From an uncultured Bacilli bacterium (lineage in GTDB: Bacteria; Bacillota_I; Bacilli_A; RF39; UBA660): DNA of 64,000 nt. Position numbers and translations under genes: made by a program. Shown here one piece after another: positions 1,801 to 61,123 of the stretch. The first letter of the stretch is position 1. Every line of letters starts with the position of its first letter. Under the pieces are notes generated by a model. It did not search any database. It worked only from the letters and a program-made list of their open reading frames with translations, and was not told where the DNA came from. The DNA lies in the NCBI GenBank assembly GCA_934096275.1, contig CAKOLK010000003.1, positions 28,366 through 92,365 of the forward strand, given 5' to 3'.

Positions 1801-4638
1801 ATGAATTTTATAAAAAATAATTATAAAAAAATAACTCCATTTATAATCATAATGTTAATAGCGATAATCTCATACTCAGTTACACAATCATCATACGCAC
1901 AAACAACCACAAAAACATTTACAAGACAAGAAATACAAGACATGATAGTATCCACTGCAACAAGTTATCTAAGAAATAATACATATTCAGACTACGATCA
2001 ACATGCAATGGATGCATCATCTACCTATAATGGGTCATCAATTACAACATTCAACTGGAGAGACTTTAATATAACACCAGAAATGGTAAGCAGAACTAAT
2101 AACTTTCATGATGACTGTAGTAGCTTCGTAGCACAAGTATTAATAAACTCAATAGATTATGACTTTTCAAATTACTATAACTATACATCAAATACATTCT
2201 ACTTATTTAAAAACTTTACTTACACACAGTCTAAGTCATCAAAAACGACATTTATCGAAGGCTATAAAAGAACAGGAAAAAGTATTTCAACATTCTTCTT
2301 CAATAAATTAGCAAACTCTATAGCAAACGTATCTAAAGGAACAGAATACAAAAACAATACTAATTTTGTAAACTATTACTATGAATTCACTGGAAGTGAA
2401 ACAACTTCTAAAAGAAACACTGTAATATCAAGTGTTAAACAAAGACTACAACCCGGAGACATTGTAGTATACAGACACACTTCATCATCAGGAAGTGCAA
2501 GCGGACACGTTATGATCTATGCCGGAGACTTCTACGACAACAATGGAACAAAAATGACTGGATTCATTCATTCAACAGGAAAAAGCTATGACTTTACAAC
2601 AGAAACACTAAATAGAGATAAATATGCAGTACAAACAGGTACAATGACTGTAAAAATAGATGATATAATAAACGATACCAAAACAACCTCATACATGATT
2701 CTAAGACCTATAAACTATTACTGTTCATCAAAAGATTCATGTAGTCTAACCGTACCAAACAATTCATTAGCAAGACCATCTATGAAAGATTTAAAAATAG
2801 AACAATACATATCCAAAGACAATAAAAATATATCTAAATACAATAGCGTCAATATTAATGATACACTTACATATAATTTAGATATAAAAAATATTAAAAT
2901 AAACCCAATAAAAAACATTACAATAACAGCATCAATACCAAGTAATACAACCTATGTTAGTTGTAATAACGATTGTAAATATAGTAACAATGAAATAACT
3001 TGGACACTAGGTAATAATAGTAATATAACAAACAATACATATAGTTATACAGTAAAAGTAAATAAAGAAAAAACAATTACTAATACAGGTTTTAAAATAA
3101 AAAATCCTGATAATACAATCCTTCAAATGAGTGAATTAAATACCAATATAAATCCAAGTATTAATAATGATCTAGATACTAATGTATTAACAAGTATAAT
3201 AAAACTATCCCAAGAATTAAATAAAAATGGATATCTAACATACGGAACAAGTACAAATGATAATACTTATAAAACAGACATTACTACTATAAATGAAAAT
3301 AATAAAATAACACTTTCATCAGTGGACTATATAAAGTTCTTATACTACAATGCTTATGGAATAGACTTAAGTACCATGACAAAAGATAATATAAAAACAT
3401 CACTATTTAATACTCAAAGCAGTCTATACTCTAGAAAAACTACTAATAGTGATGCTATATCACAAATGCTTGTACCAGGACTATATGGAGGAAGACTACT
3501 TAAAGGAAATGATAACAACGACCGTACAAGATTTATGGTACCAAGCGATCTTGAATTTGGAGACATAGTAACATTCTACACATCAAATGCAACTCTAATA
3601 AATATATATATATATCTAGGACAAGAAAATAACTATCCAACATTCTTAAGAATAGCAAGTGATAACACAATCACAAAACTAACTAACACATCAGCAGAAG
3701 ATTTATTCAATGCATTATATGCTAAAAATCTATTTGCAATATTTAGACCTACAAGATACTACGGAGTAACAATAACCCTACAAGACAATAATAAAAAAGA
3801 TCATATAACACTAGCTAAAAATACAACTTATAGAAATTTACCAATAATAGAAAAAAAATACACTGTAACATACGAATATAACACAACACCTGATAATGAA
3901 TGCAAAGATAAAGATGTAATTGATGATGTATTCGATGGCTGGTATAAAGACTCTACAAAAGTAGATGAAAAAACAACAATTACCGATCAAACAGCACATA
4001 CACTAACAGCAAAATATACAAATAAAGAAATAACATTACCAACTCCAACAAAACAAGGATTTAAGTTCCTAGGTTGGTATAAAGACTCAACATTACAAAA
4101 TAAAGCATCAGAAACTAATAAATACACACCTGAAAGTGATATAACACTATATGCTAAATGGGAAGAAGAACAACCGGACCCATCACCAGAACCAAATCCA
4201 AATCCTCCAAAAGAATTTGACATAACATCAGATGAATTCACTATAAAAGATGGTTATATCTACTTAAAAGAAAATAATAAAGAGTTTACAAGCTATATAA
4301 ATAAATTAAAATATGATAAATCATTTAACTATAACTTAAAACTATATGATAACAATAAAGAAATAACAAATAATATAGTATTTACAGGATCTAAACTAAA
4401 AGCAATAGACAATGACACAGTAATAAAAGAATATATAAACATTGTAAAAGGTGATGTTAATAAAACAGGAACAGTAACAATGGCCGACGTTATGAAACTA
4501 GTAGACTATCTATTTGATAACGACACGATGACTGAAGACTATAACCTAAAAGCAGGAGACGTCAATAATACTAACACAGTAACAATGGCCGATGTTATGA
4601 AACTAGTAGACTACATTCTAGAAGGAGGAGAACTATGA
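1801..4638 (+). CDS. secreted multidomain protein: NlpC/P60-like Cys/His hydrolase domain, Listeria-Bacteroides (Flg_new) repeats, C-terminal type-I dockerin
   Basis: Signal peptide MNFIKNNYKKITPFIIIMLIAIISYSVTQSSYA. DDCSSFVAQV with GHVMIYAGD gives a Cys/His pair. FDGWYKD...LTAKY and FKFLGWYKDS...LYAKW are Flg_new repeats. Two Ca-loop repeats GDVNKTGTVTMADVMKLVDY and GDVNNTNTVTMADVMKLVDY at the C-terminus. Confidence 0.6.
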   Translation: MNFIKNNYKKITPFIIIMLIAIISYSVTQSSYAQTTTKTFTRQEIQDMIVSTATSYLRNNTYSDYDQHAMDASSTYNGSSITTFNWRDFNITPEMVSRTNNFHDDCSSFVAQVLINSIDYDFSNYYNYTSNTFYLFKNFTYTQSKSSKTTFIEGYKRTGKSISTFFFNKLANSIANVSKGTEYKNNTNFVNYYYEFTGSETTSKRNTVISSVKQRLQPGDIVVYRHTSSSGSASGHVMIYAGDFYDNNGTKMTGFIHSTGKSYDFTTETLNRDKYAVQTGTMTVKIDDIINDTKTTSYMILRPINYYCSSKDSCSLTVPNNSLARPSMKDLKIEQYISKDNKNISKYNSVNINDTLTYNLDIKNIKINPIKNITITASIPSNTTYVSCNNDCKYSNNEITWTLGNNSNITNNTYSYTVKVNKEKTITNTGFKIKNPDNTILQMSELNTNINPSINNDLDTNVLTSIIKLSQELNKNGYLTYGTSTNDNTYKTDITTINENNKITLSSVDYIKFLYYNAYGIDLSTMTKDNIKTSLFNTQSSLYSRKTTNSDAISQMLVPGLYGGRLLKGNDNNDRTRFMVPSDLEFGDIVTFYTSNATLINIYIYLGQENNYPTFLRIASDNTITKLTNTSAEDLFNALYAKNLFAIFRPTRYYGVTITLQDNNKKDHITLAKNTTYRNLPIIEKKYTVTYEYNTTPDNECKDKDVIDDVFDGWYKDSTKVDEKTTITDQTAHTLTAKYTNKEITLPTPTKQGFKFLGWYKDSTLQNKASETNKYTPESDITLYAKWEEEQPDPSPEPNPNPPKEFDITSDEFTIKDGYIYLKENNKEFTSYINKLKYDKSFNYNLKLYDNNKEITNNIVFTGSKLKAIDNDTVIKEYINIVKGDVNKTGTVTMADVMKLVDYLFDNDTMTEDYNLKAGDVNNTNTVTMADVMKLVDYILEGGEL

Positions 4639-6560
4639 TAAAAAATATAAAATACCTACTATTTTTAGGACTATTTCTAATTCCATTAAATACAAATGCT
4701 GCATCAAGTAGTGTATCACTAAGCTGTCCATCAACTGCAAACCCAGGAAATACCATAAGTTGCAACATATCAATGAAAACAACCGGAGCAGTAGCAAATG
4801 GAATATCATTAAAATATGATTTCGCAAGTGGCTTATCATACGATAGCTTTACCCCATCATCATCATTTACACCACTAAAAAGTACTGCAACTGGCTTTGC
4901 GCTAAATGGTTCTGGTGGAGTACCATCATCAGTATCAATCGGAACTTTAAGAGTAAAAATATCAAACTCAGTTAACGGAGGTCAAAGTTATAAAGTAACA
5001 CTTAAATCAATTGACGTATCAACATATGATTCATCCACAAATAATTATGCCGATTTATATCCGAACGATGCAACAGCACAAATAAGAATAAAATCATCAA
5101 ACAACAATCTATCAAGCTTATCAGTATCAGGACATGAAATAAACTTCAATAAAAACACAACAACATATACATTAGAAACAACATCATCAAAAGTAACAGT
5201 AAGTGCAACAAAAGAAGACTCATATGCTACTATATCTGGTACAGGAACAAAAAGCTTATCATATGGACTAAACACAATCAAAGTAGTAGTAACATCAGAA
5301 ACAGGATCAAAGAAAACATACACAATAAACATAACAAGAAAAGATACTAGATCAGATGATGCAAAACTATCATCATTAACAGTAAGTAATGCTAATATAA
5401 ACTTTACACCTAATCAAACAATATATAATACATCAGTTGGATCAAGTATATCAAAAGTACAAATATCAGCTAAAACAAACAATGATAAAGCAACATTTAC
5501 AACAGGATATGGTCCAAGAACAGTAAACCTATCATATGGACAAAATACATTCAAACTAATAGTAAAAAGTGAAAAAGGTAACACTAGAACATATACAATA
5601 AATATAACGAGAAAAGATACTAGATCATCAAATAACAATCTATCAAGTTTATCAGTATCAGTAGGCAAAATAAACTTCAATAAAAACACAACAACATATA
5701 ACATAGACACTAAAAGTGATGTAACTAGTGCAACCATAAGTGCAACACTTGAAGATCAAAAATCAACATTTGTGAGTGGATACGCTCCAAGAACAGTATC
5801 ATTAAAAGAAGGATTCAACTCTTTCCAAATAAAAGTTAAAAATGAAAAAGGCACTATTAAAACATACACAATAAACATAACAAGAGAAGACGGAAAAAGT
5901 AGAAACAATAACCTAAAAGACTTAACACTTAGTACTGGTAATATAACATTTGATAAAAATAATTTAAATTATAACGTAACAGTAGAATATGAAATAGAAA
6001 AACTAACAATAAATGCAACTCCTGAAGACTCTAAAGCAAAAGTTACATATCAAAAAGAAAACACCCTAAAAGTTGGAGAAAACAAAATAACAATAACAGT
6101 CGAAGCAGAAAATAAAAGTACTAAAAACTATACAATAACAGTAACTAGAAAAGAAGAAGGAAAAAAACTATCAAACATAAGTAGTCTATCATCATTATAC
6201 ATTGATAACAAACAAATAACTCTAAATGAAAATCAAACAGAGTATACATACCAAACAACACAAACCGCAGCAAACGTAAAAGCAACACCTACAGATCCTA
6301 ATGCAAACATCACAGTAATAGGAAACAATAGTATAAAAGATGGTAGTATAATTCAAGTAATAGTAACAGCAGAAGACCAATCAACAACAATATATAAAAT
6401 AAAAATAGAAAAAAAAGAAGATAAAAACAATACTTTATTAATAATATTAATTCCAACTATAATAATAGTTATTGGTATAATAACATTTGCATTAATAACA
6501 AAAAATAAAAATAAAACAAGAGATATAGACGCAAATCTATTAAACTTAAATAGGAAATAG
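4635..6560 (+). CDS. membrane-anchored scaffold-like protein: putative cohesin domain, 5 cadherin-like beta-sandwich repeats, C-terminal TM anchor
   Basis: ATGA overlap with the upstream dockerin gene. Signal peptide present. The N-terminal domain carries ANGISLKYDFASGLSY, reminiscent of the cohesin IANCDFxxxYD motif. Five roughly 88-aa repeats read LSSLSVS...TYTINITRKDTRS (nt ~5094-6430). Hydrophobic C-terminus LLIILIPTIIIVIGIITFALI followed by KNKNK. Confidence 0.45.
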   Translation: MIKNIKYLLFLGLFLIPLNTNAASSSVSLSCPSTANPGNTISCNISMKTTGAVANGISLKYDFASGLSYDSFTPSSSFTPLKSTATGFALNGSGGVPSSVSIGTLRVKISNSVNGGQSYKVTLKSIDVSTYDSSTNNYADLYPNDATAQIRIKSSNNNLSSLSVSGHEINFNKNTTTYTLETTSSKVTVSATKEDSYATISGTGTKSLSYGLNTIKVVVTSETGSKKTYTINITRKDTRSDDAKLSSLTVSNANINFTPNQTIYNTSVGSSISKVQISAKTNNDKATFTTGYGPRTVNLSYGQNTFKLIVKSEKGNTRTYTINITRKDTRSSNNNLSSLSVSVGKINFNKNTTTYNIDTKSDVTSATISATLEDQKSTFVSGYAPRTVSLKEGFNSFQIKVKNEKGTIKTYTINITREDGKSRNNNLKDLTLSTGNITFDKNNLNYNVTVEYEIEKLTINATPEDSKAKVTYQKENTLKVGENKITITVEAENKSTKNYTITVTRKEEGKKLSNISSLSSLYIDNKQITLNENQTEYTYQTTQTAANVKATPTDPNANITVIGNNSIKDGSIIQVIVTAEDQSTTIYKIKIEKKEDKNNTLLIILIPTIIIVIGIITFALITKNKNKTRDIDANLLNLNRK

Positions 6561-9598: not shown

Positions 9599-9786
9599 AA
9601 TTATCACCTCATTTCTTAAAAAAAGATAATGAAGACGGCGCCCAAAGATACGTGCAATATAAATATAACAAATAAATGTTGTGTGTCAAGTTTATTGAGA
9701 GTAGAAAAATCTAACAAGAAATAGTACTTGAAAAAGTACTTTTTTTGTTATAGAATTAATATATAAGAAAATATGGAGGTAAAACT

Positions 9787-11482
9787 ATGAAAAACAAATA
9801 TTCGTATGGGGGGGGGGCGAAATACTTATAACCCTTTAAAAACTAAAGGAAGAAATAAAAAGATAACAACTATAATAATATTCCTAATACTAATAGTAGT
9901 TAGTATCTCTTTTGCTTTGTTTAATCCCAGTATTAATTTACTAGGAAGAAGAAATATAAAAATATCTAAATGTGAACTAGATATAAACTTTAAAGAAAGT
10001 GATGAGTTAATGCTAGTTAGTAAGTATCCTATATCTACAAGACAAGCCCTTGAAGGAGACTATAAACCTAAAACAGTTACTATAACTAATAATTCTACAT
10101 GTGATACAGCGTATTATAAATTAACTATAAAAGATTTAATAAACTCATCTATAAACAAAGATGTAATACAATATCATGTAGTAGATAAACAAAATACTAT
10201 GACGTATAAACTTGGAGATATTAATGGAGATGGAACAATAAAAATTTTTGATGTTACACTTATAAGGAGATATCAGAATGATACAGATAATTATTTTGGA
10301 TTACATTCAAATGCAAGATATGCTGCAGATTTAGATGGCAATGGCAAGATAAATGAAGAAGATGTTACATTACTTAGGCAATATATTTCGAATCCAAATG
10401 GTACTTTTCCCGCAGGCTCTCCACTTGAAGAAAAAACAACAACTAAAGAAATAATAGATGTAAACCCAGATACGTTCTTAATAGAAAATTCATTGGAAAA
10501 AGGACAAACACATGAATATGAAATAATGATGTGGATAAGTAATGTTGCAACAAATACAGATTTATACGTAAATGGAGATACAACAAAACCTATTGAATAT
10601 AAATATGCACTTAATATTGAAGCGTATGATGAAAAAAAGGAAGATGCTGAAATCGTTCCAATACTTAATATACCAGTAGGCACAAACGGTATTGAAAAAG
10701 TAACACATGAAATAGATGATACATTACAAGTAGATAGTAAGTTTGCAACAGAATATAGATATCGTGGAGGAGATTCAGTAGTAAATAACCGTGTAATATT
10801 TAATGATGAGACACGATGGAGAATCATCGGAGTAATACCGACTGAAGATACTTCTGGTAATGTAGAAAATAGAATAAAAATAATAAGAGATGAATCTATT
10901 GGAGAGTACGATTGGAATGAAGATGGTTTAAATGATTGGACAACTGCAACACTTAATACATATTTGAATAATGATTATTATAATACCTTAACAAGTGATG
11001 CTCAAAACATGATAGGAACAACAAAATATTATCTTGGTGGGTATGACTGGAGTGATGATACATTCACATTAGATATAATGTGGCGGTACGAAAGGAAAAA
11101 AGCAAATGATAATTTGGGTATATATTACTATGAAGGAAATCAAATAATGCAAAATGATGCCACTAAAAAGATAGCGCTAATGTATGCAAGTGATTATGGA
11201 TATGCAGCATCAAAAAAATGTTCAAAAGGGTTATTTTATTACAAGGAAGACGCTAATTGTATAACGACAAACAATTGGCTAGATAAATCGCAATATGAAT
11301 GGTTAATACCACAGGGGGTTGATACTAAATATGCATTCAATGTTAGTGATGGCGGTAATATAGAAATCGATGTTGTTAGTTACACTCATGCAGTTCGTCC
11401 AGTCCTAACACTCTCATCTAACGTAAAAATATCCGGAGGATCTGGCACAAGTTCTGACCCATACCAATTACAATTAAACTAA
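9787..11482 (+). CDS. phase-variable surface protein family member A (TM anchor, internal dockerin, conserved C-terminal domain); RBS-linked ATG currently out of frame
   Basis: ggaggtaaaactATG at 9787. G10 tract at 9808-9817. The long ORF is read from the internal ATG at 9806; 9 or 12 G would fuse the MKNKYSYGGG leader to it. Dockerin loops DINGDGTIKIFD and DLDGNGKINEED. Confidence 0.7.
9808..9817 (+). repeat. poly-G (G10) homopolymeric tract at the 5' end of the ORF, slipped-strand phase-variation site
   Basis: 10 consecutive G in a genome of about 27% GC, located between the RBS-linked ATG and the ORF body. Confidence 0.8.
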
Positions 11483-25553: not shown

Positions 25554-25608
25554 AAAACTTCCAGAAATAGTATAAAATTAACTTATAATAAACTATGGAG
25601 GCAAAACT

Positions 25609-27832
25609 ATGAAAAACAAATATTCGTATGGGGGGGGGGGAAAAAAATTCTAGTAAAATAAACCCTTTATTTAAAGATATAAAAGAATATAATAAATATC
25701 TATTATCATTAATAGGTATTTTTGTACTATTACTTTCAGGTATTATTTCTTATAATTATACAAATACTTCTTATGCAAAATGGAGTAGTAGTGTAGAATC
25801 TAAAAATATTATTAAATTGCATGTTAAATCTAATTTAGATGAAAGTGGGGCAAATGAACCTAAAATAACATCAAACATGATACCGGTATATTATGATGAA
25901 ACAAATAGTGTATGGAGAAAAGCAGACGTTAAAAATAGCAAAGAACAATACAAATGGTATGATTATAATAACAAGATGTGGGCAAATGCAATTACTACCT
26001 TTCCTTATGAAGAAAAAGTTACTGACACTATTAAAAAAAATATTAATGTAATGCCATATTCACTTACATCTGAGTCAAGTAATAATGCAAATACTGCGGT
26101 AAATTCACAATACAAAATGTCATTTACTACAACTAAAGCTAGTACCTTTTCTTTTGATTACAGTATGCTAAAAGGTACGAAAACATCAAAATTTCAAGTA
26201 ACAATAAACGGTACTACTGAAGTAAACAAAGACTTTTCAGGTAATTATAGTGATACTGTTTTTGGAGGAACTTATACCGACTCATTCTCTAAAAATCTTG
26301 AAGCAAATAAGAAATATACAGTTATCATAAATGCAGAAGTTACATCATCTAATGCAGGTGCAGATAATAGTATTACAGTGTCAAATATAAATTTAACTAA
26401 TGAATATACAAATTTTTCATATGAAAATAGTGGTTCAAAATTTACAGTGAATTATTATCTGAGCCATTCATATGCACTTGATCAAGTCACTGGTAAATAC
26501 GTATTAGATTTAATCAATACCTCGTCAGAATATTTGAAAGATAGTTATATATGTCCCAATACTACTTCAAATATTTGTGATGAAATATATAAAATAGTTG
26601 ATATAACTTATGGACACATGTGGTCTGCAGAGGTAACTGATGCAACAATAAATAGCTATGTATCATATACATCTAAAAATATAGAAAATGAATTCTCAAA
26701 AAAAGAAATTGGTGAAGAAATACCATTAGATAAAATAAGCACAATGTGGGTCTGGATACCAAGGTATACATATACTTATCTTAATACAAATACACCACAA
26801 GAAATAAGCATAAAGTTTGAAAAAGGAACATCAAGTAGTGGTACAATAAAATGCGTTGATAACGTAACATATACTGGTACAACTTCAGAAACATGTACTG
26901 ATACAACAAATTCATCATTAAAAACAGGAATTTCCACATATACGCATCCAGCATTTACATTTGGGGAAGATGAATTAACAGGAATATGGGTAGGCAAATT
27001 TACTAATAGTAGTTACATAATAAAAAAACCAGATGAAATAGTAGAAAATAATATAATAATAAAACCAAATGAAACATTTTTAAAATTAAGTGCATCAGAG
27101 GCGTTTAAAACAATAAGGACAATGGAAAAAACAAATAATATGTATAAGTTTAATCAAAAAAATGATACCATGTTTAATTGGAATGGGGAACTTTCATATG
27201 ATTCGAACAACATAGATACACACATGATGAAAAATATGGAATGGGGAGCAGTAGCATATTTTTCGCATTCTAAATATGGTAGATGTACAAATAGTATTTG
27301 TGAAGAAATAACAATTAATAATTGCACTGAAGCTATAACTGGTATTGGTGGTAATACAGTTGATGCAAACTACAGTTCATCAGCGTGTACAACCACTGAA
27401 AATAAATACAATGGTTCAAAAGGAAAAAAAGCAAGTACTACAGGAAATATATATGGAATATATGATATGAGTGGCAACGATACACTCGTAATGGGTAATG
27501 TAACCAGTTCATCAAATCAATTTCAACCATCAAAAGCAGGAAATTGGAATACAACAACATATCCTTTAGCAAAATACTATGATAATTATTCAAATGGAGG
27601 ATCAAGCGATACTTATCAACGTGGAAAATTAGGAGATGCAACAGTTGAAATGGCTCCAACACGAGCATCGAGTGATAATTGGTATTCAGATTATACTATT
27701 TTTCCATATTATACAGAATCATGGTTTATTCGAGGAGGAAGCTATGTTAGTGACAGTGATGCAGGTATTTTTGCATTTGAAAGTGGTAATGGTGATGACA
27801 AAACTTCTAGATCAATATTAGTTATAAAATAG
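25609..27832 (+). CDS. phase-variable surface protein family member B; RBS-linked ATG currently out of frame
   Basis: ggaggcaaaactATG at 25609. G11 tract at 25630-25640; 10 or 13 G would fuse the MKNKYSYGGG leader to the 734-aa ORF. A TM helix follows the leader. Confidence 0.7.
25630..25640 (+). repeat. poly-G (G11) phase-variation tract
   Basis: 11 consecutive G. Confidence 0.8.
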
Positions 27833-36756: not shown

Positions 36757-36856
36757 ATAAATCATTGAAAAACGCTCAAAAATATTGTATTATTAATTTA
36801 TAAGAATAATAGACAATATTTTTTAATTTTTGTCTAAAGATTAAGGAGGAAAAAAT

Positions 36857-38348
36857 ATGAACAAATATTCGATTGGGGGGGGGGCAAAAATTAACTAACC
36901 CTAATAGAAAGAAAGTGCTATTTATGATATCTTTATCATTATTTATGGTAGCAATATTATCTTTTGGGGCATACGCCTTATGGAATAGTGAACTACTTAC
37001 TGGTAATAATAGTATAACTACAGGACAAGTAAAGATGAGTTATACTGAATCAAATGAAATAGGAATGAATAATGCATTACCTATTAAAGATAGTGAGGGT
37101 AAGGTATTAACTAATTACTTTGATTTTAAAGTTCTTTCTTATATTAAAACAAGAGCAAATGATGATACACAAAGAAAACTAAATTATAACATAGTACTAG
37201 AACCATTAACAGTAGAAACACCTTTAAACGACAATGAGATAAAAGTGTATCTAACTATGGTGGAGAATGGAAATGAGACAGTAGTAGTTGAACCTACAAC
37301 AATTGATCAACTAAATAATAAAGTTTTAAGTTCTAAAGAAGAAATATTTTCAAATAATAAAGCAGAAGTAGTAACAAGTTATAGACTTAGAGCTTGGATT
37401 GATGAGAGTGTAGATACAACTAAACTTAATGAAAAGAAATATAGTTATAGATTTAGAGTAAATATTAATAATGAAGCTGCACCAGTAAAAGAAGATCATG
37501 CACTTACTTTTGCTAAATCTAAAGTTGGAACAGATGGATTAGAACAAATAACTCATACAATAGATAATACATTACAAGTAGATAGTAAGTTTGCAACAGA
37601 ATATAGATATCGTGGAGGAGATTCAGTAGTAAAAAATTATGTAACATTCAATAATGAAACATGGAGAATAATTGGAGTAATACCTACTGAAGATACAGAT
37701 GGTAATGTGGAAAATCGAATTAAGATAATAAGAGATGCATCTATAGGAAATATGGAATGGAATACTACAGAAGATACAACAACTAGTTCATATAATAACT
37801 GGGTAACAGGAACATTAAATACATACTTAAATAATGATTATTATAATACATTAACAAGTGATGCAAAATACATGATAGGGACAGCAAAATATTATCTTGG
37901 GGGATACAATACTTCACAAATAACAACTGATGTAATGTGGCAATATGAAAGAAAAAATGAAGCAAATAGAACAGGTTACTATTATGGAACAAACCCAATA
38001 ATGTTAAATGATACAAGTAAAAAGATAGCAATAATGTATGCAAGTGATTATGGATATGCAGCATCAAAAGAATGTACAAGTAACTTATTTGATTATGATG
38101 ATACAAGTTGTAAAACAACAAATAACTGGCTAGATAAGAGTGAAACTACATGGTTACTTGCACAATATTCTGATAGCCACGAACACGCATTTTATATAGA
38201 TAGGGGAGAGTACGTTGCTCTGCCTAGTTCTAATGGATATGTATATGGTGATATTTACGCAGTGCAACCTGTCCTAACTTTATCATCCAATGTAAAAATA
38301 TCAAGTGGCTCAGGTACAAGTTCTGACCCATACAAATTAAGCCTATAA
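36857..38348 (+). CDS. phase-variable surface protein family member C; RBS-linked ATG currently out of frame
   Basis: aaggaggaaaaaatATG at 36857. G10 tract at 36875-36884; 9 or 12 G would fuse the MNKYSIGGG leader to the 491-aa ORF. C-terminal domain is homologous to member A. Confidence 0.7.
36875..36884 (+). repeat. poly-G (G10) phase-variation tract
   Basis: 10 consecutive G. Confidence 0.8.
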
Positions 38349-41823: not shown

Positions 41824-42621
41824 ATGACTATGAAAACTGAAAAGGTAACATTTAAAATTAATTCAGAAATAATTGAAAACTATGTAAATACAATTAATTC
41901 CTTAAAAACACCAATGAATCAAATTAAGAAACTGATAAATAAAAAACACAAACAATATGAGTCAATAACAAAGATGAATGAAGAAATCCAAACATATTCT
42001 AAATCCTATCCCAATGATAAAACAACAATATTCATTGATGCAATTATTCAAATAATGAATGCCAATAATGGAATGCTATCAACAAGAATGATAGAGCCAC
42101 TTGATATAAATAGACAATATCTTTCAATAATGAAAAAAAACAACATGATTGATAACGTATCAAGAGGAATATATTGCTCCACAGATTCATATGAAGATAG
42201 CTATTTTGCACTTCAACAAAAATATAAAAAAATAATTTTTTCTCACATGAATGCACTATATTTTTATGGGTTAACTGAAGAGTTCCCAGATAGCTATACA
42301 ATAACCGTACCGCAAAGATATCATGCGGATAAGATCAATGAAAAATGCAGAGTTTTTTATGTTTCAGATGAAATATATGAACTAGGATTAACCGAAGTAG
42401 AAACACCATACGGAAATAAAGTAAGAACTTATGATAAAGAAAGGTGTATATGTGATATCATAAGATCAAAAAGACGGATGGACTATGAACAAGTAGAAAA
42501 GAGTATAAAAAAGTATTTGGAAAGTAAAGATAAAAATGTAGTTAAACTATATGAATATGCCAAAAAAATGAAAATAGAAGAAAAAGTAATGAAACAACTT
42601 GAGGAAATAAACTATGAATAA
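41824..42621 (+). CDS. abiEi: AbiEi-family type IV antitoxin / transcriptional regulator
   Basis: Family-level match to AbiEi; overlaps the AbiEii gene. Confidence 0.6.
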   Translation: MTMKTEKVTFKINSEIIENYVNTINSLKTPMNQIKKLINKKHKQYESITKMNEEIQTYSKSYPNDKTTIFIDAIIQIMNANNGMLSTRMIEPLDINRQYLSIMKKNNMIDNVSRGIYCSTDSYEDSYFALQQKYKKIIFSHMNALYFYGLTEEFPDSYTITVPQRYHADKINEKCRVFYVSDEIYELGLTEVETPYGNKVRTYDKERCICDIIRSKRRMDYEQVEKSIKKYLESKDKNVVKLYEYAKKMKIEEKVMKQLEEINYE

Positions 42622-43456
42622 TAATGCACAATCTATAAAAGATAAACTAAAAACTATAGCAAAGCAAAGAAATGTTGATTTTAATTTAGTAATGAGATTT
42701 TATATGTATGATAGATTTATGGAAAGACTAGTAACCAGTAAATATAAAAATAACTTTATACTAAAAGGTGGATTTTATCTGAGCAAACTATTTGGCATAG
42801 ATAACAGAAACACAATAGATATAGACACAGCGATTCAAAACACAGAACTTGATAAAGAAAATATAAAAAATATAATAAATGAAATATTAAATATAGATAC
42901 AAATGATAATGTTATTTTCTCATTAGAAGAAATAACCCCAATTCGTGAGGAAGATGAATATGGTGGATTAAGAGTTACAGTCATTTTTAAATTGGATAAC
43001 ATAAAGGACAAATTTCATATTGATATAGCAACTGGAGATCCAATATATCCCGGACCAAAATATTATAATTATCAAACACTCATTAATAATAAAGAATATG
43101 AAGTTCTAACATACAGTATTGAAACTATTTTAGCAGAAAAAATAGAAACAATACTAAGTAAACTAGAAAAAAGTAGTAGAATGAAAGATTATTATGATAT
43201 CTATATGATATACAAGTTTGAGTTTGAAAGAATAAATAAAAATAATTTAAAAATAGCAATAGAAAAAACATTTAAAAAAAGAGACTTCAATCAAAATCCA
43301 ATAAAAAATATAGAAATAATCAAAAGTAGTGAAATATTAAAAATAAAATGGAAGAGTTACACTTTAAAAAATAAATATGCAAAAAACATTGATTTTAACG
43401 AAACAATAAAATGTTTAGAACAATTTATAAAAATAATAGACATTGTAACAACATAA
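42614..43456 (+). CDS. abiEii: AbiEii nucleotidyltransferase toxin (DUF1814)
   Basis: FILKGGFYLSKLFGIDNRNTIDIDTA motif. Confidence 0.75.
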   Translation: MNNNAQSIKDKLKTIAKQRNVDFNLVMRFYMYDRFMERLVTSKYKNNFILKGGFYLSKLFGIDNRNTIDIDTAIQNTELDKENIKNIINEILNIDTNDNVIFSLEEITPIREEDEYGGLRVTVIFKLDNIKDKFHIDIATGDPIYPGPKYYNYQTLINNKEYEVLTYSIETILAEKIETILSKLEKSSRMKDYYDIYMIYKFEFERINKNNLKIAIEKTFKKRDFNQNPIKNIEIIKSSEILKIKWKSYTLKNKYAKNIDFNETIKCLEQFIKIIDIVTT

Positions 43457-60482: not shown

Positions 60483-60513
60483 TTTTTTAACAAGAATATG
60501 TTATAATTATTTT

Positions 60514-61123
60514 CAACAAATGGCACATTATTCTAGTCAATAATTTATTACGAAGGTGGGGCTAAAAATCCACTAAAGAGCACATCGATGAAGTCCTTGG
60601 TGTTTGCTTTATACGCCCAGTTTGGGGTGGATGCTGAGGGTTAAGAATTTATGGGCGACTATAATGGCATATAGCAACCGACCCATTTATTCGTGGAGAC
60701 TTATTATTGTGAGAAGCCTATACAGATAAACTTGACGGACTTTTTACGAAATAAGTAAGAACCTATTATGTGGCGAAAGTTATGAATAGAGTAGCTTGGC
60801 TTGAGTGGTTATTTGGGATTATGGATAAGTTTTTTGTTACATGGCCAGTGATAAATAATTTGGTAACCATATGAAACTATAATTGCAAAAGAGCATAGTA
60901 ATAATAATTATTGTCGGGGAAAACCCCTAGAGTGACATCTCATAGGATTGCAGTGCGTACTAAGTGGTAATCAAGTCGTAGATATGGTGACATACTACTA
61001 TTTCTTTTAAAAGGGAACTGCTACACTGGTAACGGTAAGTAAGAAATAGGGAAATCCAACTTGACCTAAGACGTAAAGTTAACTATGACATAGCCATTCT
61101 TTAAGACCTTTGGGTCTTTTTTT
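60514..61123 (+). ncRNA. candidate large (~610 nt) structured non-coding RNA with own promoter and terminator, unclassified
   Basis: TTGATT, 17-bp spacer, TG-TATAAT at 60479-60507. No ORF of 60 aa or more on either strand across 720 bp. GC is 40-47% in sampled 60-nt stretches versus about 27% genome-wide. GGGG-AAAA-CCCC hairpin at 60916-60927. Terminator aagacc-tttg-ggtctt plus T7 at 61103-61123. Confidence 0.45.

Follow-up and report, generated by a model that had tools for sequence, protein, structure and literature searches.

The binding of cohesins to dockerins is the best-understood high-affinity 'plug and socket' of bacteria, and has mostly been seen in fibre-degrading Clostridia. Among the described systems, ClcC/ClcD of Cellulosilyticum lentocellum is a co-transcribed pair with one cohesin and one dockerin, for which a heterodimer was shown (PMC13487519). 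Here we describe two overlapping genes in a 64,000-nucleotide stretch (hereafter the window) of contig CAKOLK010000003.1, positions 28,366 to 92,365 of the forward strand, from an uncultured Bacilli bacterium. The first gene encodes a secreted protein with a C-terminal dockerin (the cargo) and the second a membrane protein with a cohesin-like tip (the anchor), and we consider it likely that they form a divergent cohesin-dockerin pair for surface display, with the cargo held on the anchor. The window pair resembles ClcC/ClcD in that one of two adjacent genes encodes a protein with a lone cohesin (cohesin-like in the window) and the other an enzyme that ends in a lone dockerin (PMC13487519). ClcC differs in that its cohesin is recognised by Pfam and is accompanied by CBM3 and X2, in lacking a membrane anchor and in pairing with a GH5 cellulase, whereas the window pair has a cohesin-like domain invisible to Pfam, a cadherin-like stalk with a transmembrane helix, overlapping genes and an NlpC/P60 cargo.

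In Ruminococcus, cohesin families that were found only through AlphaFold have been described, some of them single-cohesin and transmembrane-anchored, with crystal structures from R. callidus (PMC13463774, 2026). They share with the window family a jelly-roll that is missed by sequence methods and visible to AlphaFold (PMC13463774). That work concerns Ruminococcus (Clostridia), with many dockerin-bearing carbohydrate-active enzymes (CAZymes) and makes no mention of Bacilli or of cadherin-like stalks; the contigs of the window lineage, in contrast, are labelled uncultured Bacilli, and the window family differs in its contigs of 25-33% GC, an invariant Cys pair and mostly non-CAZyme cargo. R. flavefaciens has multi-cohesin scaffoldins and sortase-mediated anchoring. 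Its type-III ScaB and its ScaE/ScaC cohesins (5m2s, 5n5p, 5aoz, 2zf9, 4uyp) resemble the anchor domain, giving both the best profile matches (E 0.012-0.019) and the best structural ones (TM-scores of up to 0.73), but the window anchor has one cohesin-like domain per protein, a transmembrane helix and no LPXTG, and identity is only 13-19%. The dockerin proteins of R. flavefaciens include leucine-rich repeat (LRR), peptidase and NlpC/P60-like cargo (PMC2930009, PMC3573020), among them an NlpC/P60-like X-dockerin protein (PMC3573020).

A non-cellulosomal use of cohesin and dockerin is also found in the R. bromii amylosome (PMC4611034). The window pair is comparable to this system and to those of the C. 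perfringens GH84C cohesin (2w1n/2jh2) and A. fulgidus (2xdh) in joining cohesin and dockerin outside cellulose degradation, and C. perfringens and A. fulgidus were among our fold matches. The non-cellulosomal cohesins are, however, recognisable by sequence and occur on glycoside hydrolases or toxins or free, and none has been described with a cadherin-like stalk and transmembrane anchor. No paper on the window family was found in a limited literature search from which subscription journals were mostly missing, which is absence of evidence only. What sets the window family apart is the uncultured low-GC Bacilli host, the cadherin-like stalk, the invariant Cys pair, the gene-by-gene pairing of a one-cohesin anchor with cargo that is mostly non-CAZyme, and the size of an unnamed family; this represents a new lineage and architecture for cohesin-dockerin biology, not a new principle.

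The gene pair has the following features, with lengths given in amino acids (aa) or nucleotides (nt):

1801..4638, + strand: cargo gene, an open reading frame (ORF) of 945 aa for a secreted multidomain protein with the dockerin at its C-terminus (Pfam Flg_new, DUF11 and Dockerin_1)
4623..4638, + strand: coupling junction, with AGGAGG at 4623-4628 within the last dockerin codons, 6 nt 5' of the ATG at 4635 (direct reading)
4635..6560, + strand: anchor gene, an ORF for a 641-aa type-I membrane protein with signal peptide, cohesin-like tip, stalk and transmembrane helix
6552..6585, + strand: terminator-like hairpin with a 12-bp stem and a T-run, 3' of the anchor stop, closing the two-gene operon

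Both ORFs lie where an initial annotation of this DNA had placed them, and the overlap it reported is present: the four bases ATGA (4635-4638) are common to the cargo stop (TGA, 4636-4638) and the anchor start (ATG, 4635). The AGGAGG at 4623-4628 is encoded by the E-G-G codons at the end of the cargo dockerin. The two genes are best explained as a self-contained, translationally coupled operon, and this coupling would lead to co-production of cargo and anchor. A weak hairpin with T8 was seen by eye at about 1709-1737, 3' of the gene preceding the cargo. Upstream of 1801 a convincing -35/-10 pair was not callable by eye, and a promoter scan in the AT-rich window was uninformative (36 sites against 37.5 expected). 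GC content is 25-30% across the whole window. Cargo orthologues hold the same gene position in related contigs, and anchor orthologues with 98% identity occur in Hadza gut metagenome contigs or a Bacilli metagenome-assembled genome (MAG).

Where the cargo gene lies upstream of the anchor gene (4617-4634 in the window; L012-L015), its dockerin ends in the residues (E/N/I)GG(E/D/N/S), whose GGAGG-type codons also form the Shine-Dalgarno sequence for the anchor gene that overlaps it. Where the dockerin gene lies downstream, the ends are different, NGKF and IGSN.

The anchor was divided as follows:

4635..4700, + strand: signal peptide, aa 1-22, MIKNIKYLLFLGLFLIPLNTNA/AS (NTNA/AS), read by eye
4701..5108, + strand: cohesin-like β domain, aa 23-158 (~136 aa), from AlphaFold, Foldseek and profile
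5109..6434, + strand: five cadherin-like β-sandwich repeats, aa 159-600, starting at aa 159, 245, 336, 427 and 518 (PF12733, 152.3 bits)
6432..6557, + strand: C-terminal transmembrane helix TLLIILIPTIIIVIGIITFALIT (aa 600-622), then a basic, K/R-rich cytoplasmic tail (KNKNKTRD), from hydropathy

All parts of the architecture that had been proposed from the sequence were located in this protein, namely the signal peptide, the N-terminal β domain, five PF12733 repeats and the C-terminal transmembrane helix, where hydropathy reached up to 3.05 over 19 aa. The ANGISLKYDFASGLSY stretch is also present. A search of the N-terminal domain with the cohesin hidden Markov model (HMM) PF00963, which the initial annotation had put forward as a check, failed for the anchor and for all 113 family members scanned. 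PF00963 was unmatched by the 641-aa anchor (E<=1), by 13 isolated domains (E<=10, noise only) and by 100 full-length relatives (E<=0.01), and no Pfam or NCBIfam model covers aa 23-158. By Pfam, then, this domain is no cohesin.

Structure prediction gave a different result. With alignment A1 (the 13 homologous domains) as input, AlphaFold modelled aa 23-158 with a predicted local distance difference test score (pLDDT) of 94.3 and a predicted TM-score (pTM) of 0.87, as an all-β domain with its strands in the order of a cohesin jelly-roll. In a Foldseek search of this model against the PDB, cohesins held ranks 1-13 and 15-21 (20 of the top 21; E 3.4e-7 to 6e-5), with TM-scores of 0.60-0.73. These matches cover cohesin types I-III as well as non-cellulosomal ones, and include C. 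acetobutylicum CohA2, A. fulgidus, A. cellulolyticus ScaC, R. flavefaciens ScaB and ScaE, and C. perfringens. The sole non-cohesin among the top 21 was a CLIPPER domain (9ifr) at rank 14, with integrin thigh and calf domains further down. As modelled, the domain is a nine-stranded β-sandwich jelly-roll that superposes on solved cohesins, and the cohesin fold that the initial annotation had expected here is confidently predicted.

Profile searches against the PDB pointed the same way at sub-threshold scores, which improved as more relatives were included. Single-sequence phmmer placed a cohesin on top (E 0.55), and with a 13-sequence profile cohesins were three of the top four matches, all sub-threshold (best E 0.19; 9ifr at E 0.95). 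When a 40-sequence profile (A6) was run against 177,635 PDB sequences, the top seven were all cohesins, at E-values of only 0.012-0.24. Leading these were the R. flavefaciens ScaB cohesins (E 0.012-0.019), collinear over about 100 residues, and 10uv ('Cohesin domain number 2') was matched at E 0.023. The anchor domain belongs to a cohesin-fold family that has diverged far from known cohesins, of which the ruminococcal type-III-like ones appear to come closest.

The other half of the proposed pair lies at the end of the cargo:

4447..4620, + strand: cargo dockerin, aa 883-940, two Ca-loop/helix repeats, from PF00404, motifs and fold

Its motifs are DVNKTGTVTMAD, from nt 4453 (aa 885), and DVNNTNTVTMAD, from nt 4558 (aa 920). 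The match to Pfam Dockerin_1 (PF00404), at 24.3 bits, exceeds the gathering score of 22.9 by only a small margin. An AlphaFold model of the cargo C-terminus had a pLDDT of 84-93 over the dockerin and showed a loop-helix, short helix, loop-helix order (helices at model positions 84-96, 103-109 and 119-131); the top 24 PDB matches of this model were all dockerins, at a root-mean-square deviation of 1.3-2.9 Å. What had been annotated as a canonical duplicated dockerin is a two-repeat dockerin by Pfam match and predicted fold, but only near-canonical, with Thr at position 5 in both Ca loops and Asn, not Gly, at position 6 of repeat 2. The two repeats are identical to each other at 18 of 22 positions. 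Near-symmetric dockerin repeats are associated with dual-mode binding, and the 18/22 identity fits such a mode (2vn5/2vn6, by their PDB titles, are among the dockerin matches). A six-frame motif scan of the 64-kb window found exactly four paired dockerin Ca-loop motifs, two in the cargo and two in ORF 9806..11482 (protein A, see below), and no other dockerin motif pair in any frame.

The strongest evidence for the pairing is the conserved adjacency of anchor and dockerin genes. A dockerin gene directly adjoins the anchor in 8 of 8 loci examined, which represent about five distinct genomic contexts; among about 75 neighbour genes (six fully annotated loci), the dockerin genes are those contiguous with the anchor (8/8). 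The loci, named by their anchor proteins, are:

Window lineage and the 57%-identical P0013 lineage (L001, L012): NlpC/P60-Flg_new-dockerin gene upstream, with a 4-16 nt overlap; context MurD … sigma factor
P0047 (L010): gene for a 1047-aa LRR-dockerin protein, 23 nt downstream; context rplM-rpsI … parAB
P0023 (L013): gene for a 411-aa dockerin protein overlapping upstream, and for a 1273-aa LRR-dockerin protein downstream
P0036 (L014): beside conjugation genes; gene for a 1244-aa LRR-dockerin protein adjacent upstream, with a GH43-Big_3-dockerin gene just upstream of it
P0044 (L015): gene for an 818-aa Peptidase_C1-lectin-dockerin protein upstream, overlapping the anchor gene; context polA … hisS
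P0117 (L016): LRR and dockerin upstream; unannotated, truncated, translated in this analysis
P0029 (L017): uncharacterised domain and dockerin upstream; unannotated, truncated, translated in this analysis

All anchor loci have a GC content of 25-33%. The cargo is swappable between them, and its dockerins are of one subtype, D-V-[NT]-x-[DT]-G-x-[IV]-x-M-[ASN]-D-[VLI]-[MVI]-K. Despite the unrelated cargo domains, the dockerins are also preceded by a conserved β module (TGSK…EY.I.V.GD). A GH43-dockerin neighbour was seen in only some relatives, and those window ORFs that were scanned gave neither a glycoside hydrolase nor a carbohydrate-binding module. We considered and rejected a cellulosome for this locus, as just one cohesin-like domain lies in the window, the cargo there is a cysteine hydrolase and there is no CAZyme cargo.

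To gauge the family, an exhaustive profile search was run over 1.84 billion representatives and returned 495 clusters (defined at 50% identity) at E<=1e-3, of which 221 were at E<=1e-10. The only public name of the family proteins is 'hypothetical protein', and a single-protein scan of the genome collection with the anchor had given only four close relatives. The domain nearly always lies directly 3' of the signal peptide. In a Pfam scan of 100 members, cadherin-like repeats were found in 79 and Dockerin_1 in 20. When 154 members were screened for motifs and hydropathy, 63 ended in a transmembrane helix and 16 in a two-repeat dockerin, never both in one protein; the others were largely fragments, and none of the 154 had an LPXTG. 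By analogy, this split between transmembrane and dockerin ends mirrors the anchor/adaptor logic of scaffoldin systems. Two cysteines of the domain, Cys31 and Cys43 (window 4725-4763; Cys-Pro…Cys), were invariant in 100/100 and 40/40 members. Such a pair is to our knowledge no feature of canonical cohesins, and a Cys31-Cys43 disulfide is plausible.

One three-gene cluster of the family (L018:2366-6069, also L019) has the look of a miniature scaffoldin gene cluster, in the order anchor, adaptor, anchor. Its first gene encodes a 286-aa cohesin-like transmembrane anchor. The second encodes an adaptor of 554 aa in which a cohesin-like domain is combined with cadherin-like repeats and a dockerin, and the third a 394-aa transmembrane protein whose N-terminus has the same Cys pair but which went undetected by the A1 HMM.

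The contigs of the window lineage are labelled 'uncultured Bacilli bacterium' and come from Hadza gut metagenomes. A contig deposited as 'uncultured Muribaculaceae bacterium' (L006, CAZVVV010000011.1) has an anchor gene 87% identical to that of the window; this contig is probably mis-binned, because its GC content of 26.4% and its gene content match the Bacilli MAGs.

Upstream of its dockerin, the 945-aa cargo has the following parts:

1801..1899, + strand: signal peptide, aa 1-33, SSYA/Q cleavage, read by eye from the translation
1903..2760, + strand: NlpC/P60-type papain-fold cysteine hydrolase domain, aa 35-320, with Cys106, His236 and His257
2842..3087, + strand: DUF11/CLIPPER β-sandwich domain, aa 348-429 (PF01345, 31.4 bits; cutoff 24.6)
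3868..4170, + strand: two Listeria-Bacteroides (Flg_new) repeats, about aa 690-790, approximate (PF09479, 49.3 bits; TIGR02543)
4237..4446, + strand: small β module before the dockerin, aa 813-882, TGSKLK...EYINIVKG (AlphaFold strands, pLDDT 63-78)

For the window protein itself, Pfam gave only a sub-threshold CHAP match (E 0.019), and the NLP/P60 structure 3h41 was matched at E 1.4. PF00877 (NLPC_P60) is, however, on record for many cargo homologues, including P0301 at 95% identity. In an alignment of homologues of the N-terminal domain, Cys106 (DCSSF) and His236 (GHVMIY) were each conserved in 49/49 and His257 in 46/49. Judged from the sequence, the cargo is probably a cysteine hydrolase of the NlpC/P60 type, in which a Cys-His-His triad is conserved, and this agrees with the NlpC/P60-like assignment of the initial annotation. 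The β module is equally conserved 5' of the dockerins on unrelated anchor-adjacent cargo in other species.

Taken together, these data lead us to propose that a non-covalent plug most likely fixes the enzyme to the cell surface, as follows. Both products would be exported via Sec. The 641-aa anchor would be held in the membrane by its C-terminal helix, and its five cadherin-like domains would form a stalk long enough to span the peptidoglycan and project the cohesin beyond the wall, with the tip presenting a single divergent cohesin module. The 945-aa NlpC/P60-type hydrolase, with its CLIPPER and Flg_new adhesin-type domains, would be secreted, and its C-terminal dockerin would bind the tip cohesin, presumably in a Ca-dependent manner as in other cohesin-dockerin pairs. 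The hydrolase would thereby be held non-covalently at the cell surface. By its family, the substrate may be peptidoglycan-type peptide bonds, either in the cell's own wall or in that of other cells; the organism has peptidoglycan, as MurD, FtsW/RodA and MltG/YceG are encoded in the window.

Several points weigh against this proposal. PF00963 was unmatched by the anchor and all 113 relatives scanned, lenient thresholds included, and the profile E-values against PDB cohesins were only 0.01-0.05. No signal (probability <1%) came from HHalign of the family profile with the CipA type-I cohesin, taken alone or as a shallow alignment of five database proteins, two of which were metagenome fragments with partial frameshifts; the seed of this set was 97% identical to the UniRef CipA entry. 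Binding between cohesin and dockerin is predicted, from fold and context, and the analysis of this genome covered a 64-kb window, so that other cohesins or dockerins encoded elsewhere in it might be the true partners. CLIPPER/DUF11 (9ifr) and integrin β-sandwiches stand among the fold matches of the anchor domain, which means that the jelly-roll fold by itself is not unique to cohesins. The anchor tip could thus be a generic β-sandwich adhesin (CLIPPER/DUF11- or Ig-like) on a cadherin-like fibril that binds no dockerin, the dockerin proteins encoded beside it having a different partner and the gene adjacency reflecting co-regulation of surface proteins alone. The missing Pfam cohesin match, the CLIPPER domain at fold rank 14 with integrin thigh/calf domains after it, the E-value of 0.95 for 9ifr in the small profile and the cargo's own DUF11/CLIPPER domain would all fit such an adhesin. 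We nevertheless think it improbable, given that cohesins made up 20 of the top 21 fold matches and all of the top seven matches of the deep profile, from which CLIPPER was absent, that co-regulation does not predict dockerin adjacency across contexts with unrelated cargo, and that the members with a dockerin in place of the transmembrane helix have an adaptor-scaffoldin architecture. CLIPPER/DUF11 as the identity of the domain was considered in its own right and judged less likely, with one match against 20 cohesins and none once the profile was deepened.

A related doubt concerns the dockerin. Dockerin-like modules are common even where a genome has no recognisable cohesin, and many dockerins of non-cellulosomal genomes are suspected of being orphan Ca-binding modules. 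The cargo dockerin might likewise be a module with no cohesin partner, acting as a protein stabiliser or a wall-polymer binder, with the anchor in an unrelated role, and its slightly degenerate Ca loops (Thr at position 5, which is non-canonical) and marginal Pfam score, both of which count against our proposal, would suit this. Against it, the dockerin fold is confidently predicted, the same subtype and β module occur on unrelated cargo wherever the anchor family is encoded, and translational coupling implies co-production with the anchor; we regard an orphan module as very improbable. In our preferred reading, the cargo dockerin is matched to the anchor cohesin. The same cohesin could also dock a second protein of the window, the phase-variable protein A, so that a poly-G switch would change what is displayed on a constant anchor:

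9806..11482, + strand: protein A, 558 aa, with poly-G at 9808-9817, a dockerin at nt 10211-10387 and DUF6273

That protein A carries a dockerin, as the initial annotation had it, was borne out by a strong Pfam match (Dockerin_1, 48.9 bits; DUF6273, 26.4 bits) and by the motif pair DINGDGTIKIFD at 10217 and DLDGNGKINEED at 10328. It also has the features of a phase-variable gene, as had been claimed: the ORF starts with a homopolymer, G10 at 9808-9817, on whose length the reading frame depends. ATG 9787, which has a GGAGG 7 nt before it and would be the better start, is off the frame of the ORF by one base. Between strains the tract varies, being G9 in L008, which restores the frame from ATG 9787, and G10 in L001, L002 and L005. 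These features would suit a switchable ligand, as would the distance of only 3.2 kb from the anchor gene and the presence of two dockerins against one cohesin-like domain in the window. Its repeats (TIKIFDVTLIRRY / KINEEDVTLLRQY), however, differ where anchor-adjacent dockerins are conserved (TMADVMKLVDY), the dockerin is an insertion of about 80 aa, and the two other poly-G paralogues of the window have no dockerin. Because the dockerin subtype differs and the dockerin is missing from the orthologue in the strain with the 98%-identical anchor (L001), the link between protein A and the anchor cohesin is unsupported, and we consider docking of protein A there doubtful. Of the non-cellulolytic display system that the initial annotation had read into this DNA, the core is well supported, by the fold, the weak profile matches, a dockerin gene beside the anchor at every locus examined and the catalytic triad, but protein A as a ligand is not.

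A broader reading of our preferred model can be put forward only tentatively. On a lineage-wide scale, an unnamed cohesin family might serve plug-and-play display with interchangeable cargo and a phase-variable antigen that acquired a dockerin. It is possible, if rather unlikely, that the family as a whole (495 clusters invisible to Pfam and NCBIfam, with anchor and adaptor members) replaces sortase or S-layer homology (SLH) anchoring. With similar reserve, the host would be cell-walled, low-GC, uncultured gut Bacilli, and the cargo would span a hydrolase, LRR adhesins, a papain-like protease and GH43. The locus does suggest that divergent cohesins missed by Pfam and NCBIfam hang non-CAZyme proteins (a hydrolase, LRR adhesins and a protease) on uncultured human-gut Bacilli. 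If binding were confirmed, about 500 clusters of 'hypothetical proteins' would gain an annotation, and structure-based discovery of hidden cohesins would extend beyond Ruminococcus. New orthogonal cohesin-dockerin pairs would become available for protein engineering, and the surface enzymes and adhesins displayed by these unculturable gut bacteria would be identified.

Comparison of protein A with its 469-aa orthologue (L001:13168-14574) showed that the dockerin is a module-sized insertion at 10196-10423 (aa 131-206), flanked by sequence 83% identical to the orthologue on the N-terminal side and 50% identical on the C-terminal side. This divergence of the flanks, together with the dockerin insertion or deletion, points to a rapidly diversifying surface protein. 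ORFs 9806..11482, 25628..27832 and 36873..38348 have a near-identical 5' leader (9775-9830, 25597-25650 and 36845-36900), consisting of GGAGG-N7-ATGAA(A)AACAAATATTCG(T)ATG/TTG and then a poly-G tract of G10, G11 and G10 (at 9808, 25630 and 36875), respectively. Each of the three poly-G ORFs is shifted by exactly one base relative to the ATG proximal to the ribosome-binding site, and together they look like a paralogous family of homopolymer phase-variable surface proteins.

Two further elements were recognised elsewhere in the window. A full-length OLE (ornate large extremophilic) RNA, a known RNA class, lies at 60504-61113 on the + strand (RF01071, 398 bits). At 42614-43456 there is an AbiEii toxin, a type IV toxin-antitoxin nucleotidyltransferase (PF08843, 149 bits), and the unannotated 265-aa ORF just upstream of it (41824-42621) may encode the AbiEi antitoxin.

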